A stretch of 64,000 nucleotides of DNA from sequence record MK373784.1. The stretch is one strand, 5' to 3'. This stretch comes from Escherichia phage vB_EcoM_MM02. Numbering within the stretch: the first letter of the stretch is position 1; each line of letters starts with the position of its first letter. Below the pieces are notes generated by a model. It was not told the origin of the DNA and ran no database searches. It worked only from the letters and a program-made list of their open reading frames with translations. Position numbers and translations under genes: made by a program. Positions 7,371 through 62,831 of this stretch are shown piece by piece.

Positions 7371-7394
7371 ATTATTCTCCTCTGGTTGATATGG

Positions 7395-7425
7395 TTATAA
7401 TATCAAAACCAGAGGAGAAGTAAAC
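7395..7425 (-). promoter_or_regulatory. sigma70-like early promoter (GTTTAC, 17 bp, TATTAT) inside an inverted repeat
   Basis: Reverse complement of gtaaac at about 7420-7425 and tataata at about 7396-7402; 9-bp inverted repeat (cctctggtt / aaccagagg) flanks the -10 and overlaps the GAGGAG RBS. Confidence 0.45.
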
Positions 7426-8354: not shown

Positions 8355-8384
8355 ATTATACTCCATCCATCCTTGGATGTAAAA
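8355..8384 (-). promoter_or_regulatory. early-promoter cassette, variant copy of the attatactcca...ccttgg...gtaaa repeat
   Basis: attatactccatccatccttggatgtaaaa; -10 TATAAT and -35-like TTTTAC on the minus strand. Confidence 0.4.
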
Positions 8385-8912: not shown

Positions 8913-8942
8913 ATTATACTCCAACCATCCTTGGTTGTAAAC
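8913..8942 (-). promoter_or_regulatory. early-promoter cassette, repeat copy (GTTTAC, 18 bp, TATAAT)
   Basis: attatactccaaccatccttggttgtaaac; spacer contains palindrome CAACCA/TGGTTG. Confidence 0.5.
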
Positions 8943-12823: not shown

Positions 12824-13405
12824 CTAAAAATTCAACATTTTCAAATGAATGATTTTGTATAATCGAGATAAAGGGTCATATTCTAAGTCTTCAATTTCCA
12901 CAATCTCAAATCTAGAGATACCTGAGACCATGTACTCTTGTTCAGATTCAATCATATCTAGGACGTCAACACGCGTTTCTTCCATAACATGCTTAGGGTT
13001 CTTTCCGGCGAGTACAATGTTAACCATGTTTTGGTAGTAATCAAAAATGAATGGAGCATTCCTGAGACTAAGAATAGTGTACGTCTGATATTCCCATCTC
13101 CCGGAGAATTGACGAGCTGTACTGAAATCAGTTGTGAACGATGTTACTCGTCCAGGAGACCAATGGCATCCAACAGAAAGAAGGGAAAGACGTTCTACTT
13201 CTTCTGGAGTTACACCACGGTAGAGTTCTACTGGTACTGTAGAAGTCATATGCTTACGAACAAGATGGTCTAATTCATAGTGGAAATCCGGGTCTTCCTT
13301 AGAATCGGTGCAAGCCCAGAGAATGTTTTGTTCTTGGCGGGTGAATTTACTATCAATCAGATTTGTTAGATATTCACGTTCTTGAAGTTCAGATTGACAT
13401 GTCAT
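12824..13405 (-). CDS. ADP-ribosyltransferase, ModA/ModB family (paralog)
   Basis: 193 aa; LYRGVTPEE, FTTDFSTA, ESEQEYM; clear paralogy with 12158..12766. Confidence 0.6.
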   Translation of the reverse strand: MTCQSELQEREYLTNLIDSKFTRQEQNILWACTDSKEDPDFHYELDHLVRKHMTSTVPVELYRGVTPEEVERLSLLSVGCHWSPGRVTSFTTDFSTARQFSGRWEYQTYTILSLRNAPFIFDYYQNMVNIVLAGKNPKHVMEETRVDVLDMIESEQEYMVSGISRFEIVEIEDLEYDPLSRLYKIIHLKMLNF

Positions 13406-13802
13406 GATAGACCTCCATTTAAAGATAAGCCTATCATAACACGAGAGGAGGGAATGTAAACTACTTTTTAAGCTTTCCTACTAAAGGACCATCAGGACCA
13501 GGTTGTTCTAACATGAATAAGGATGCTTTAAAAAGCAATGTCAACCCTTTCACCATTCGATACCATGTCTCAAAGTCTTTTTCCTTGATTTCTAGTAAGA
13601 ATTTCTCTTTCAATTTCTCTTTCATTTCCAAGGGCTCCATGGTGGAGGGTCATCATAATAAGAGGCGAGGTCTTTCAGGACATCTAATGGTAAACTAAAG
13701 CCATGACGCTGTATAATACTATCTAGTTCATCAACAAGTTCACTACGATGCACTTTAGGAGCCTCAACTTCAGGCTCGTCAAACATACTCATAAGGTCCA
13801 TA

Positions 13803-14884: not shown

Positions 14885-14951
14885 ATTGTTCTCCTCTTGA
14901 GTAAGTAAGAATATCTTAACACAGGTTTTAGTGGTTGTAAACTGTAGAAAC

Positions 14952-14978
14952 AAAAAAAAAGGAATCCCGAAGGATTCC
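14952..14978 (-). terminator. rho-independent terminator downstream of soc (UUCG-loop hairpin + U9)
   Basis: Plus strand aaaaaaaaa ggaatcc cgaa ggattcc; on the minus strand a 7-bp stem with UUCG loop followed by nine U. Confidence 0.6.
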
Positions 14979-14987
14979 TTAAATTAT

Positions 14988-18768: not shown

Positions 18769-18831
18769 TTTAACTCCTTAGTTGATTTGATAGGACTACT
18801 ATACTATAGTCCATCTATAATGTAAACAAGT

Positions 18832-20290: not shown

Positions 20291-20296
20291 TTTGTT

Positions 20297-20345
20297 CTCC
20301 AGTAGTTGATAGGTCTATAATAACACAACTACTGGAGAAGTAAAC
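20297..20345 (-). promoter_or_regulatory. early promoter with -10 in the loop of a perfect 12-bp inverted repeat that includes the downstream RBS
   Basis: Arms ctccagtagttg (about 20297-20308) and caactactggag (about 20326-20337); -10 ataata at about 20317-20322, -35 gtaaac at about 20340-20345 on the minus strand. Confidence 0.5.
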
Positions 20346-20720: not shown

Positions 20721-20786
20721 AATGTTTTCCTCTTGGTTGGTATAAGTACATCATATCATGCCTAGAGGAAGATGTAAACCCCGAAA

Positions 20787-20807
20787 GGAGACCGAAGTCT
20801 CCTTTTT
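20787..20807. terminator. GC hairpin (ggagac cgaa gtctcc) with T-run, immediately downstream of gene 41
   Basis: T5 tract follows the hairpin on the plus strand; U-rich but interrupted tract on the minus strand; orientation ambiguous. Confidence 0.35.
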
Positions 20808-40893: not shown

Positions 40894-41374
40894 AATGCGT
40901 CATTTTATCGTAGATGTCTTGAATAAATGTTTCATCTACCAACGCTACCATATCATCGTCATGACTGTCGTAGACATTATGAACGAAGTAACTATATTTC
41001 TTTGCAACTTCCTTACGTTCTTTTTTGATACGTTGGACAAAAGCATTAAAACAAGCTCGAGTTATGTATGCATGTGGGTTATTGTACTTAGTTTCGTCGA
41101 AATTATGAAGTCCCTTAATAGAGGCTTCAATCCCATCTGCAATCATCTCCTGCTTCCAAGACTGGGTATATCCTGAAAAGTTGAAACGTTTGGACAGGCC
41201 TTCGGCGATAAGCATAATTGCTAAACCGATGGTATCATTCTGACGAATAATTTTGTTTGGGTCTTTATTATTTAAGAGCTCCTTTTTCCACTCGATTATA
41301 GCGGCGAGAAGCTCTTTATTATTCACATAGTTATTTTTAGGTTTTTGTTCAGTCATAAGTACCTCTTGGCTCAA
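40799..41374 (-). CDS. 55: late-transcription sigma factor gp55
   Basis: 191 aa; ...[15 protein letters not shown]...[40 protein letters not shown]... matches my memory of T4 gp55. Confidence 0.85.
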
Positions 41375-41428
41375 TTCATAGGTCTATTATATCATAATAT
41401 TTAGAGACCTATCTTAAAGCACGAGATA

Positions 41429-42557: not shown

Positions 42558-42620
42558 GATATTTTCCTCATTTTAAGACGATAGGAAGATAATAACATGT
42601 CTTCCTATCGTTGTACATTA

Positions 42621-43509: not shown

Positions 43510-43850
43510 GACTTAATTTCCTTCGCAATTGAACAGAAGATACCACGGTCACAAAGCATTTCACCAATTTCTGGATATTTGATTGAACGGTACCAAACAT
43601 CCAGGCTTGAAACTCTGGTTATCTGTATGGCATTACCATTGACAGAATAGTACTGGTCAACCTTAATTTCTTTATCTTCAATTGTCATTTTATTTTCCTC
43701 TATAGTAGATGGTTTAATCTTAACACATCTATTGAGGATGTAAACTGTTTTATGAAAATATTTTTTGATTTGAGAGGGGCACAAGGAGATAGTGAAGTGA
43801 AGATTCCAATGGATTATATTAGAAATGAGATAAAGAAGACCAGGCGGCAC
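43506..43850 (-). CDS. hypothetical protein
   Basis: 114-aa ORF. Confidence 0.3.
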   Translation of the reverse strand: MPPGLLYLISNIIHWNLHFTISLCPSQIKKYFHKTVYILNRCVKIKPSTIEENKMTIEDKEIKVDQYYSVNGNAIQITRVSSLDVWYRSIKYPEIGEMLCDRGIFCSIAKEIKS

Positions 43851-48356: not shown

Positions 48357-48391
48357 GATAAACCCTTACCTTAAATAGATAAGGGTATTTA

Positions 48392-48817
48392 TTAACTTAA
48401 ACGTCTTTCTAAATATTCAATGTATTCTGCGGCTGCTTGCATCAGGTTACCTTCATAGCCGTCGTTATTTTCTTGTCCGGCTAATTTAGCTAATGCATAA
48501 GAAATTCGTTCACCTTCGAATTCACCAAGTTTACTACCTAGCACATCCGCAATATCAGCCGAATCAATTTCTTCGAGTTCATCTATTGAATGGGATTCCC
48601 AGAAGCACCAAAGAGAAGTATCACGGTCATAGATGCAAAGTTTCTCACCTGTGTTCAACATCACTTCAATAATGCCATGGTCGCCATAACCATCTTCGGT
48701 AGTAGTACCAATTACCTTGATGATCGTATCTTTCTTTAATTCAGGAAACTTGACTTGTAGTTCTTCATCTTCTTTAACAATCTTGAACCATTTACCGCGA
48801 GTTTCAGAAATATTCAT
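48392..48817 (-). CDS. hypothetical acidic protein
   Basis: 141-aa ORF. Confidence 0.4.
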   Translation of the reverse strand: MNISETRGKWFKIVKEDEELQVKFPELKKDTIIKVIGTTTEDGYGDHGIIEVMLNTGEKLCIYDRDTSLWCFWESHSIDELEEIDSADIADVLGSKLGEFEGERISYALAKLAGQENNDGYEGNLMQAAAEYIEYLERRLS

Positions 48818-51565: not shown

Positions 51566-51595
51566 ATTATACTCCAACCATCCTTGGTTGTAAAC
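51566..51595 (-). promoter_or_regulatory. early-promoter cassette, repeat copy
   Basis: Identical 30-mer attatactccaaccatccttggttgtaaac. Confidence 0.5.
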
Positions 51596-53672: not shown

Positions 53673-54200
53673 TTATGCGTGAACCGTCTTTAAACGTTCT
53701 TCAAATTTCCGAAGAGTACTAATACGTTCTGCTTTCTGTTTTGTATAGTTTGCAATACGTTCTGAAGTGAGAGCGTATCGTTCGTTTACTGATTCTTTCA
53801 TGAAGTCAGGGATTTCACGAGAAGCTTTAATTTCATCAAACTTATCGAGTACTGCCTGGTCTTCAGCGATTAAATTTTCGTACATCTCGATATCTTTCTT
53901 GATAAACTCGATATCTTCCTGGGTTACTTTGGATAAACGAGATGCTTTATCCTTTTTGTACTGCTCGTTAGTTTCACGAGACCAGAATAATGTACGTTTT
54001 TTGTTAGTGTTTTTGTAGACTTCCACAATTCCAACTGAATCGATGATAACAATCCAATTCCAGCGAGATTTGAAAATCTGGCCTCCGTCCACGGTAATCT
54101 CGTTACCATAAGCAATGTCATTAAAGAACTTACTTTGTGCTTCAGATTTAAATTTACCGTCGTTATAATTTACCAGGTTGAAAATATCTTTAGCGTTCAT
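53673..54200 (-). CDS. hypothetical protein
   Basis: 175 aa; GGAGGT RBS; promoter cassette upstream. Confidence 0.4.
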   Translation of the reverse strand: MNAKDIFNLVNYNDGKFKSEAQSKFFNDIAYGNEITVDGGQIFKSRWNWIVIIDSVGIVEVYKNTNKKRTLFWSRETNEQYKKDKASRLSKVTQEDIEFIKKDIEMYENLIAEDQAVLDKFDEIKASREIPDFMKESVNERYALTSERIANYTKQKAERISTLRKFEERLKTVHA

Positions 54201-54227
54201 GTTTTACCTCCAGTAGTTGATAGGTCT

Positions 54228-54256
54228 ATAATAACATAACCATAGACCTTGTAAAC
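54228..54256 (-). promoter_or_regulatory. sigma70-like early promoter (GTTTAC, 17 bp, TATTAT)
   Basis: gataggtctataataacataaccatagaccttgtaaac; 8-bp inverted repeat aggtctat/atagacct around the -10. Confidence 0.45.
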
Positions 54257-57550: not shown

Positions 57551-58096
57551 TTATTTCAAGGTTGGGATAATAGAATCAAGATAAGCTTTAAGAGCAACTG
57601 CTTCATCTTTGTCTAATGTAATGATATGTTGACGAAGGTCATCAATTTGGCGAATAACTACGACATCACCATCTTCATAAGAAGGATTAACGCCTAGGAC
57701 TGTTGTATAGTCAGGGCGGTCCTGATTTGTAATAAAAGCATTACGGCATTTAGCCCATTGAAGTTTGGCCTTTTTGGCTGTTTCAGATTCCATTAATTCT
57801 TTCACCTTAGTGACGAATGTTTTCCAATTATTAATAGAAAAACATTCGTCTTCAGTTTCGATATTGGCCGCGTTGTAAAGACCAGGATAAAAACGAACTT
57901 GGAGGTCTTCACCAATGTTAATTACCTCTCGACGACGTCCAGACGGATTGAGTTTCAAAATCTTATCCAGTTCCATAGGAAGAATAGTAGCAGCATCATC
58001 TTCTTGTGTCAGAACATACACATAACCACGTTTTTCGATACATAAATCACCGAACAACTCGGTTGTTTCAATTACAGTTTTCATATTATTCACCAA
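57551..58096 (-). CDS. hypothetical protein
   Basis: 181-aa ORF. Confidence 0.4.
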   Translation of the reverse strand: MVNNMKTVIETTELFGDLCIEKRGYVYVLTQEDDAATILPMELDKILKLNPSGRRREVINIGEDLQVRFYPGLYNAANIETEDECFSINNWKTFVTKVKELMESETAKKAKLQWAKCRNAFITNQDRPDYTTVLGVNPSYEDGDVVVIRQIDDLRQHIITLDKDEAVALKAYLDSIIPTLK

Positions 58097-58429
58097 TTAA
58101 AGTTTCAACAAAATTCACCAAAGCATTCTGGCAAGCGTCAACCTGATTTTCATAAAAATCTCCGTTATCATTTACCGCATGATAAGCTACGTCATTCAAA
58201 TCTGAATCAGCTTCACGTAAGTCACGGATAAGGTCCATCAATTTATTAGCTTGTTCACGGGTCATTTTACCATACTCGTTTCAATAAGATTCACTATGCC
58301 GTTTACCATGTTATAGGTAAACATCGGATAATTGTATTGTACTACAACATAAGCGATAAGCAAAAGTTTCATTTTGTTCTCCGTTTGTTTTGATAGGACT
58401 ACTATAACATAGTCCTACCAAGATGTAAA

Positions 58430-58663
58430 CTACCGATTGTGTTTTAAATGTTGATAAAGTTCTTCAACTTGTTTTGGGTCCAAAACAATTAGGTCATTTT
58501 CTTGGCGAAGATAAATCCATCCATTATCCCCAGGACCATTTTTACAAAACATCACCACCATATCATCATCTTCAGCGCTTTCAGGTAAAAGTTCAAGTAC
58601 ACCGTCTTCAGATTTTCCAGTATAATCGTAAAGCATAATATCCTCACATAATCTCGTTAACAT
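58430..58663 (-). CDS. hypothetical protein
   Basis: 77-aa ORF. Confidence 0.3.
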   Translation of the reverse strand: MLTRLCEDIMLYDYTGKSEDGVLELLPESAEDDDMVVMFCKNGPGDNGWIYLRQENDLIVLDPKQVEELYQHLKHNR

Positions 58664-58823: not shown

Positions 58824-58924
58824 AACGTTCTCCTCTAGTAAGTAAGGACTACTATAACACAACCTGAGGAGAAGTAAACTGATAGATGCCAAAAAGCCCC
58901 AACCATAAGGAAGGGGCTAGTAAA

Positions 58925-62016: not shown

Positions 62017-62475
62017 CTAGATTTTAATCACTGCTTTAGAAGCTTTTCCTGGTAGTCGTTTATTGTTAATAATAGCCATTCTGCATTGAAGAGTCTTCAT
62101 TTTGAATGCCGGATTTTCGCGACAAACTGTAAGTCCTAACCAAAGATTTCCGTCAGTTATTTCTAAACGGCCTGGACGATACTCGACACCTTCGACAAAA
62201 TCTTCATCAACATCTGGACGTGCCGGCATTGATAAAAATTCTGCAACTTCTTTAACGTGATTTTTTACTTTATGAAATAATTCAAAAACGTAATTCTCAT
62301 CTATTTCTCTCTGGATGGCACGATCTAAGAGATGTTGAGAATACTTGATATGAAAGCCTGGTAGTCCAAGAGACTTTGCAGCATCTTTTATACCGACATT
62401 TATTTTGCGGAACTCCGTTTCAAAGATTCGACGGAGTTTATTACGGCGGATAAAAACTTCCGAATTGATAGTCAT
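62017..62475 (-). CDS. regB: RegB sequence-specific endoribonuclease
   Basis: MTINSEVFIRRNKLRR...KYSQHLLDRAIQREIDENYVFELFHKVK... matches my memory of T4 RegB; start trimmed to ATG preceded by GAGGAGA. Confidence 0.85.
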   Translation of the reverse strand: MTINSEVFIRRNKLRRIFETEFRKINVGIKDAAKSLGLPGFHIKYSQHLLDRAIQREIDENYVFELFHKVKNHVKEVAEFLSMPARPDVDEDFVEGVEYRPGRLEITDGNLWLGLTVCRENPAFKMKTLQCRMAIINNKRLPGKASKAVIKI

Positions 62476-62481
62476 TTTGAT

Positions 62482-62532
62482 TTCTCCTCTAGTTGACAAG
62501 TCTATAGTAACACAACTAGAGGAGAAGTAAAC
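62482..62532 (-). promoter_or_regulatory. early promoter upstream of regB with -10 in the loop of a perfect 13-bp inverted repeat that includes the regB RBS
   Basis: Arms tctcctctagttg / caactagaggaga; -10 (rc of atagta) at about 62504-62509; -35 gtaaac at about 62527-62532. Confidence 0.5.
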
Positions 62533-62831
62533 TACTCTTTGAAAGGAATTAACTTTTTAACTGCTTTAGATACTTCGTCACGAACCTGATGGAAGTTCTT
62601 GAGCTGTTCAAGGCGTTGTTCGTAATACGCAATCTCATCTTCTTCAAGACAATCGTCAGCGTCTTCTTTCAGATATGCCTTGTACTCATTAAAGAGGGCC
62701 CATAGGCGGTTCTCAAAGTCATCAAGGCTTTGAATTTTCTTGTGCTTCAGAACAAGGCCAAAAGGATTGCTTTCAGTTATGCGTCTAGATGCTTCATAAT
62801 GAGTTCCAAAGCCTGATAGGATTTGAGCCAT
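62532..62831 (-). CDS. hypothetical protein
   Basis: 99-aa ORF. Confidence 0.35.

Follow-up and report, generated by a model that had tools for sequence, protein, structure and literature searches.

Early-promoter cassettes of a T-even phage whose stem may mask the Shine-Dalgarno sequence of regB and other genes on read-through transcripts

The regB cassette and related early promoters

The window, the whole 64,000-nucleotide stretch of Escherichia phage vB_EcoM_MM02 (MK373784.1) analysed here, comes from a Mosigvirus, an RB69-like T-even phage (99% identity, best match NBG1). It covers approximately the initial 64 kb of such a genome, and its minus strand holds nearly all the genes, among them regB, which encodes a site-specific RNA endonuclease. 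The region upstream of regB is occupied by a compact promoter cassette (Table 1), in which the arms TTCTCCTCTAGTTG and CAACTAGAGGAGAA form a perfect 14-bp inverted repeat separated by a 17-nt loop. The 5′ arm lies entirely within the promoter spacer, the loop contains the extended -10 element, and the 3′ arm carries the GGAG that is both the Shine-Dalgarno (SD) sequence and the RegB cleavage motif, 8 nt 5′ of the ATG. The upstream ORF (62532..62831) stops with a TAG (62534-62532) whose G is also the first base of the regB GTTTAC. From the geometry of the promoter, the transcript is predicted to begin 1-3 nt short of the 3′ arm, at about 62496-62498. A generic sigma-70 scan did not list this promoter, which scores 8/12 against TTGACA/TATAAT; it is retained as a predicted promoter because it has the T-even GTTTAC plus TGn pattern and because T4 regB has a typical early promoter.

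The window contains approximately 21 early-promoter cassettes, of which three strong and two to three moderate ones possess a stem that masks the SD. The promoters of the three strong cassettes (62532, 20345 and 7425) share one sequence pattern, GTTTAC, 17 nt and TGn plus TAnnnT, followed by the SD and the ATG, and the late-type TATAAATA is absent from all three. The stem at 7425 lengthens to about 18 bp if a 2-nt bulge is admitted. The preliminary description had reported a perfect 13-bp repeat around the regB -10, with GTTTAC at 17 bp and the SD in the distal arm, and the same design with perfect 12-bp arms at 20297-20345 and 9-bp arms at 7379-7425. All three are borne out, with arms that are in fact perfect over 14, 14 and 13 bp, respectively.

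Table 1. Features of the early-promoter cassettes with strong, moderate, weak or variant SD- or AUG-masking stems
Feature	Coordinates	Strand	Remarks
regB CDS (site-specific RNA endonuclease)	62017..62475	-	ATG 62475-62473
regB -35, GTTTAC, T-even early type	62527..62532	-	Promoter pattern
regB 5′ arm, TTCTCCTCTAGTTG	62513..62526	-	Hairpin dG -21.6 kcal/mol
regB extended -10, TGT + TACTAT	62504..62512	-	TACTAT 62509-62504
regB 3′ arm, CAACTAGAGGAGAA	62482..62495	-	GGAG 62484-62487
Second strong cassette	20295..20345	-	Hairpin dG -21.1 kcal/mol
20345 -35, GTTTAC	20340-20345	-	
20345 -10, TATTAT	20317-20322	-	
20345 5′ arm, TTCTCCAGTAGTTG	20326-20339	-	Perfect 14 bp
20345 3′ arm, CAACTACTGGAGAA	20295-20308	-	GGAG 20297-20300
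20345 downstream gene	ATG 20290	-	105-aa ORF, phrog_2110, no assigned function
Third strong cassette	7375..7425	-	Hairpin dG -23.9 kcal/mol
7425 -35, GTTTAC	7420-7425	-	
7425 -10, TATTAT	7397-7402	-	
7425 5′ arm, TTCTCCTCTGGTT	7407-7419	-	Perfect 13 bp
7425 3′ arm, AACCAGAGGAGAA	7375-7387	-	GGAG 7377-7380
7425 downstream gene	ATG 7370	-	174-aa ORF, phrog_1106, no assigned function
Moderate cassette	43696..43745	-	dG -12.0; GTTTAC 43740-43745; -10 TAAGAT 43717-43722; ATG 43688
Moderate cassette	20727..20779	-	GTTTAC 20774-20779; ATG 20720
Weak or degenerate member of the GTTTACTTCTCC family	58828..58879	-	8 bp only: TTCTCCTC 58866-58873 / GAGGAGAA 58828-58835
Variant geometry, masking logic kept	13399..13461	-	GTTTAC 13456-13461

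Two moderate cassettes had been missed by the preliminary description. At 43745 the stem is interrupted, pairing TCCTC (43734-43738) and TAGATG (43726-43731) with CATCTA (43706-43711) and the SD GAGGA (43696-43700), and the SD is paired in both the minimum-free-energy (MFE) and the centroid structure. The stem at 20779 consists of 7 bp between TTCCTCT (20764-20770) and the SD AGAGGAA (20727-20733), and an intrinsic terminator with a UUCG tetraloop precedes the cassette. At 58828-58879 the 8-bp arms listed previously do exist, but the MFE and centroid structures are built from other pairs, and the cassette is directly preceded by an intrinsic terminator. A further cassette, at 13461, has a variant geometry in which the 5′ arm is the -10 itself and not the spacer: the extended -10 GTGTTATGATAGGC (13429-13442) is predicted to pair with GTCTATCATGACAT (13399-13412), masking the AUG; the pairing takes in about 16 bp and extends over the SD-proximal stretch and the AUG. 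The gene downstream of this cassette is RNA polymerase ADP-ribosylase-like (phrog_832).

The strong cassettes are closely packed against the genes that precede them. Upstream stop codons fall 0-10 nt before the 5′ arm and 0-5 nt from the -35, and no terminator was found upstream of the three. A terminator scan likewise returned no terminator-like site at these cassettes; no U-run follows the stems, which run instead into AAUCAAAAUG, CAAAAUG and UAAUAUG. Since there is neither a U-tract nor a terminator-scan match, a reading of the strong stems as intrinsic terminators was rejected. A search of the whole window against Rfam 15 at the gathering score gave 0 matches.

Recurrence, covariation and predicted folding of the stem

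Five inverted repeats in the window are perfect over 12 bp or more and have a loop of up to 45 nt, against 0.23 expected from 100 dinucleotide shuffles of the window (maximum 2 in any), an excess of about 20-fold; SD cassettes account for three of the five. Predicted masking is also associated with the promoter type. With SD occlusion defined as a predicted unpaired probability of the SD core of at most 0.1 in a -90..+20 context, and with crude gene calls, an occluded SD is predicted for 6 of the 13 genes that have a GTTTAC promoter just upstream vs 11 of the 93 that have none (Fisher p = 0.006), so that fold prediction sets a background of 12% among genes that have no such promoter. As a positive control, the same screen recovered the hairpin of gene 49 (endonuclease VII).

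The predicted folds differ sharply between the two kinds of transcript. In 122-nt read-through contexts of the three strong cassettes, the stem is present in both the MFE and the centroid structure, with whole-segment z values of -2.2, -3.9 and -3.9, whereas the 44-45-nt transcripts from the predicted +1 are, by fold prediction, essentially unstructured. The unpaired probability of the 4-nt SD core is 0.00 in read-through RNA vs 0.6-0.9 in promoter-proximal RNA; for the region from -15 to -5 relative to the ATG it is 0.19, 0.01 and 0.03 vs 0.74, 0.77 and 0.57. The comparison of read-through and promoter-proximal transcripts that had been proposed as a check thus predicts the SD to be paired on the former and free on the latter at all three strong cassettes. 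When the regions upstream of 12 regB genes were folded, the SD had an unpaired probability of at most 0.04 in 11 of the 12 read-through RNAs and of 0.59-0.93 in the promoter-proximal ones (for the lineages L015, L018 and L208 this is fold prediction, without covariation). Two regB lineages were examined that have no spacer-SD stem, L018 and L208, and both have an intrinsic terminator upstream instead.

The stems recur with changed sequence and preserved pairing. Four sites in the window carry the identical GTTTACTTCTCC...GGAGAA and are copies of one repeat family, and the inner stems of these copies differ compensatorily (CTCTAGTTG/CAACTAGAG, CAGTAGTTG/CAACTACTG and CTCTGGTT/AACCAGAG). Among regB orthologues from IMG/VR and metagenomes, the spacer-SD stem persists with varying inner sequence in six lineages, among them this phage and T4; examples are CTAGTTG/CAACTAG, CTTTATG/CATAAAG, TGTAAG/CTTACA and TGTAG/CTACA. 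The T4 regB stem, CTTGACTG/CAGTTAAG, comprises 15 bp including two G.U pairs, and the stems of other lineages measure 15 bp (L012), 11-12 bp (L014) and 10 bp (L202 and L203). In L203 the SD itself is changed to GAGG within the stem ATCCTCTCTG/CAGAGAGGAT, and the L202 stem is that of T4 denV. An IMG/VR scan for GTTTACTTCTCC...GGAGAA revealed more cassettes with stems of 14-16 bp and unrelated inner sequence (L027, L030 and L040). Some orthologues of the gene at 20345 have lost the stem (L064 and L070). A second scan, with the arm-neutral pattern GTTTAC-N14-TGTTATTAT, gave mostly chance matches in unrelated viruses among the matches listed and was discarded as the basis of an unbiased census.

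Covariation was quantified in 34 distinct CTCC...GGAG cassettes, aligned without gaps and anchored on CTCC and GGAG, so that the evidence comes from the 8 inner pairs and not from the anchors; this alignment replaced a MAFFT alignment of whole cassettes, in which the gaps were inconsistent between the two arms. In the anchored alignment 75% of cells are paired vs 63% after shuffling (0 of 500 shuffles reach 75%), the covariation score is 0.266 vs 0.114 (0/500), and slid registers give 43-51% paired cells. Each inner column holds three or four standard pair types. The set is bimodal, with about half of the cassettes having at least 11 paired positions and the rest the anchor only. The earlier suggestion that changing arms with preserved pairing reflect selection for structure is therefore supported by compensatory changes between copies, between orthologues and across the 34 cassettes. 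The treatment of the sites as independent designs does not stand, as four of them share one GTTTACTTCTCC...GGAGAA module; the four belong to the PeSL (promoter-early stem-loop) class of mobile cassettes already in the literature, which had gone unmentioned. The analysis itself shows how the cassettes are built, that they occur more often than by chance, that their arms covary and how they are predicted to fold, and the hairpin feature is real and selected.

Relation to known systems and proposed role of the stem

PeSLs of T4-like phages are repeated in the genome, lie beside small genes of unknown function and occur as mosaic copies (PMC2839356, PMC4122927). [quoted passage not shown] Neither SD pairing nor translational masking is mentioned in the accessible PeSL papers (PMC2839356, PMC4122927). 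The cassettes at 62532, 20345 and 7425 match this class in having a sigma-70-like early promoter within an intergenic module that ends with the SD and the start codon, and in the stable stem-loop (13-14 bp, perfect, -21 to -24 kcal/mol) that spans the -10. The four GTTTACTTCTCC copies, the downstream genes of unknown function, the denV-type cassette at the L202 regB and a mosaic pair of cassettes add to the likeness, the last two as signs of exchange between copies. In that pair, 54199-54256 and 20295-20345 (both on the minus strand) have an identical 29-nt 3′ part (TGTTATTATAGACCTATCAACTACTGGAG) and unrelated 5′ arms, which suggests, from the sequences compared, a crossover inside the cassette. 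The strong cassettes of the window differ from the described PeSLs in that their 3′ arm is the SD itself, with no U-tract after it.

A second group of known systems comprises T4 e, soc, 49 and I-TevI, and also mobE of Aeh1, whose longer transcripts fold a helix that hides the SD or the AUG (PMC3014915). A promoter located inside the hairpin or at its 5′ arm yields an armless, translatable transcript in e, soc, 49 and I-TevI, and the late TATAAATA promoters delay expression (PMC3014915). The strong cassettes share with these genes an SD that is paired, in silico, on RNA started upstream, and an own transcript without the 5′ arm, given the predicted start 1-3 nt before the 3′ arm. They differ in that the embedded promoter is of the early GTTTAC/TGn/TAnnnT type, with the 5′ arm in the -35/-10 spacer, and in that the gene is predicted to be expressed in the immediate-early period only. 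The window itself contains the layout classically known from gene 49 of T4: upstream of gene 49 (endonuclease VII by Pfam; 48362-48393, minus strand, ATG 48356), a 10-bp hairpin (ACCCTTATCT / AGGTAAGGGT) masks the SD, and a late-promoter-like AATAAATA abuts the 5′ arm.

In T4, regB has a typical early promoter and its production is tightly regulated; RegB autoregulates regB by cutting its own GGAG SD, a motif conserved in the regB of T4-related phages (PMC3014915), and the enzyme is inhibited by RNA secondary structure (PMC3014915, PMC1702504). The same GGAG is found in the regB 3′ arm of the window. A promoter-spanning hairpin over the regB GGAG is not mentioned in the accessible reviews, although an earlier description is possible. 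No genome-wide map of T4 transcription start sites was found. The early promoter of T4 denV (L002 7381-7414) has the same design, with a 10-bp spacer-SD stem (TCTCCTGTAG / CTACAGGAGA). The principle is not new: two published devices of the T4 family, the PeSL cassette and the RBS-masking hairpin with an internal promoter, are combined.

On balance, these elements are probably PeSL-type early-promoter cassettes of T-even phages in which the stem would gate translation, and RegB cleavage, according to where the transcript originates. The promoter spacer would double as an anti-SD strand. Host sigma-70 RNA polymerase would start about 7 nt past the -10, just before the 3′ arm, and the resulting transcript, devoid of the 5′ arm and with an unstructured leader of about 22 nt, would expose a free GGAG and be translated; in the case of regB, this transcript would also be open to RegB self-cleavage at the GGAG. 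Transcripts started upstream would hold both arms and form a helix of 13-14 bp, of about -21 to -24 kcal/mol, in which the SD is buried. This burial would block 30S binding and, given the sensitivity of RegB to secondary structure (PMC3014915, PMC1702504), would prevent cleavage by the enzyme as well. Protein synthesis would thereby be tied to the brief firing (2-3 min) of the proximal early promoter, a confinement that fits the reported tight regulation of regB production. From promoter geometry and predicted folds we infer the start site, the folding in vivo and the effect on translation.

The functions already ascribed to PeSLs supply a competing account, in which the stem is an attenuator or terminator of upstream transcription, the cassette is a patch of recombination homology and the overlap with the SD is incidental to a short leader. 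We consider this account unlikely, while a PeSL attenuator or recombination role is plausible as a co-function. Published work reports stem-loops at the -35/-10 or over the -10, a terminator-like drop in lacZ expression and recombination between cassettes, and the mosaicism of 54256 and 20345, the T4 denV-type stem carried by the regB lineage L202 and the several cassettes whose -10 repeats do not reach the SD all fit it. It is harder to reconcile with the lack of a U-tract at the three strong stems, where the terminator scan was empty; homology leaves both the compensatory stem changes and a 5′ arm that is the exact complement of the SD unexplained, and the published lacZ assay cannot part termination from translational masking. 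The repeats might alternatively serve another purpose at the RNA level, such as translational coupling to the upstream ORF, shielding of GGAG from RegB or stabilisation of a 3′ end after processing, which appears decidedly unlikely. The upstream stops 0-10 nt before the 5′ arm would suit coupling, and RegB is blocked by structure, with GGAG in all strong stems; yet of the 14 bp only about 4 would be within reach of a terminating ribosome, and such roles are outcomes of the same SD burial and compatible with the main model.

An element acting as DNA, whether a cruciform or a site at which a dimeric protein binds to modulate the early promoter or shut it off, is very improbable. The repeats are perfectly palindromic, with the -10 at the centre, and the shut-off of early promoters has been described as incompletely understood in mechanism; moreover, the counts of G.U and A.C mismatches in the cassettes (7 vs 6), meant to part RNA-level from DNA-level selection, do not favour RNA. 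However, inner arms that vary freely with pairing kept are a signature of base-pairing and not of protein recognition, the T4 regB stem needs two G.U pairs, which are mismatches in DNA, and a 17-nt loop disfavours cruciform extrusion. That the repeats are unselected, arising by chance or as plain copies of one duplicated sequence, is scarcely credible: the four sites with GTTTACTTCTCC...GGAGAA are indeed paralogous copies, but the 20-fold excess over shuffles and the compensatory differences between copies and between orthologues speak against it.

The SD-masking model also faces counterpoints of its own. Only a minority of the early promoters of the window have the stem, and the view in the preliminary description that the logic is applied widely is overstated: it applies to the three strong and two to three moderate cassettes among about 21 promoters, and two of the six sites listed proved unfit. 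The -10 repeats that stop short of the SD (58430, 54256 and 18827) may indicate that the stem-loops have some broader function of which SD masking is a by-product, and the stem could be opened in part by ribosomes that terminate 5-10 nt before it. The G.U and A.C counts lack the asymmetry that selection on the sense RNA should leave, and the stems lost in L064 and L070 and the 12% background of fold prediction also weigh against the model.

If SD masking by transcript origin is correct, densely packed early genes without terminators would be expressed singly and briefly. The nuclease that ends the early period, RegB, would be made only from its own short-lived promoter, and its autoregulatory cleavage would act only on the transcript from that promoter. 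The terminator-like behaviour reported for PeSL stem-loops would then have to be attributed at least in part to translation. The design is compact, and T4 itself has it at regB and denV, two genes with existing genetics.

A broader proposal can be put forward only tentatively: T-even promoters of all three temporal classes might sit in SD-masking structures, each gene being translated, in spite of pervasive read-through, only from the transcript of its own promoter, and many PeSL stem-loops might be translational insulators or RegB shields and not terminators. Its examples may be the early sigma-70 promoters described here, the MotA-box or extended -10 region before gene 55 and the late promoter before gene 49.

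Other structured elements in the window

Upstream of the gene for the late sigma factor gp55 (phrog_234; 41362-41421, minus strand, ATG 41356), the SD GAGG is paired within a structure of z = -4.4. The arms of an inner hairpin (ATAGGTCT / AGACCTAT) flank TGATATAAT, with a TGCTTTA resembling a MotA box directly upstream. Judging by the predicted fold, SD masking may operate here at a middle or extended -10 promoter.

Several early promoters have repeats of other layouts. At the GTTTAC promoters 58401-58430, 54227-54256 and 18798-18827 (minus strand), inverted repeats of 6-13 bp flank or overlap the -10 and stop short of the SD, for example TTGGTAGGACTAT / ATAGTAGTCCTATCAA (-18 kcal/mol); this is the generic PeSL-like layout, with the stem-loop over the -10. 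A comparable arrangement is found at the T4 ipII promoter (L002 7766-7800), where a stem of about 13 bp surrounds the -10 and falls short of the SD. The 54256 cassette also contains, on the reverse strand, TTTACC, 18 nt and TATAAT. A second promoter subfamily (51566-51595, 8913-8942 and 8355-8384, minus strand) has the common spacer (A/T)CCAAGGATGG(T/A)TGGAGTATAAT, which forms a small hairpin wholly within the spacer. Strong intrinsic terminators are located at about 20780-20805, 14943-14985 and 58890-58918 (minus strand), directly 5′ of the promoters 20779, 14942 and 58879, and two of the three have UUCG tetraloops.

Two sites listed in the preliminary description were rejected as cassettes after folding. 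At the site given as 42561-42592 with 11-bp arms, the real repeat is 12 bp (42578-42589 / 42600-42611), the SD lies outside it, following the arm at a distance of 8 nt, and a credible -35 is lacking. It forms a perfect hairpin on the minus strand (ACGATAGGAAGA / TCTTCCTATCGT) with a 10-nt loop that contains TGTTATTA, between two small ORFs, and no U-tract follows it. At 2453-2503 the 11-bp repeat and the 29-nt loop are as claimed (16 nt at 88% for the longer hairpin), between a 366-aa ORF and a rIIA.1-like ORF. The perfect extended -10 in the loop, TGTATAAT, reads on the plus strand, opposite to every gene nearby, and may represent an antisense promoter or have arisen by coincidence. The SD lies beyond the arm, at a distance of about 12 nt. 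Finally, one of the only five perfect repeats of at least 12 bp in the window, at 57812-57850 (GACGAATGTTTT / AAAACATTCGTC, 12 bp, 15-nt loop), lies within a 181-aa ORF (57551..58096).
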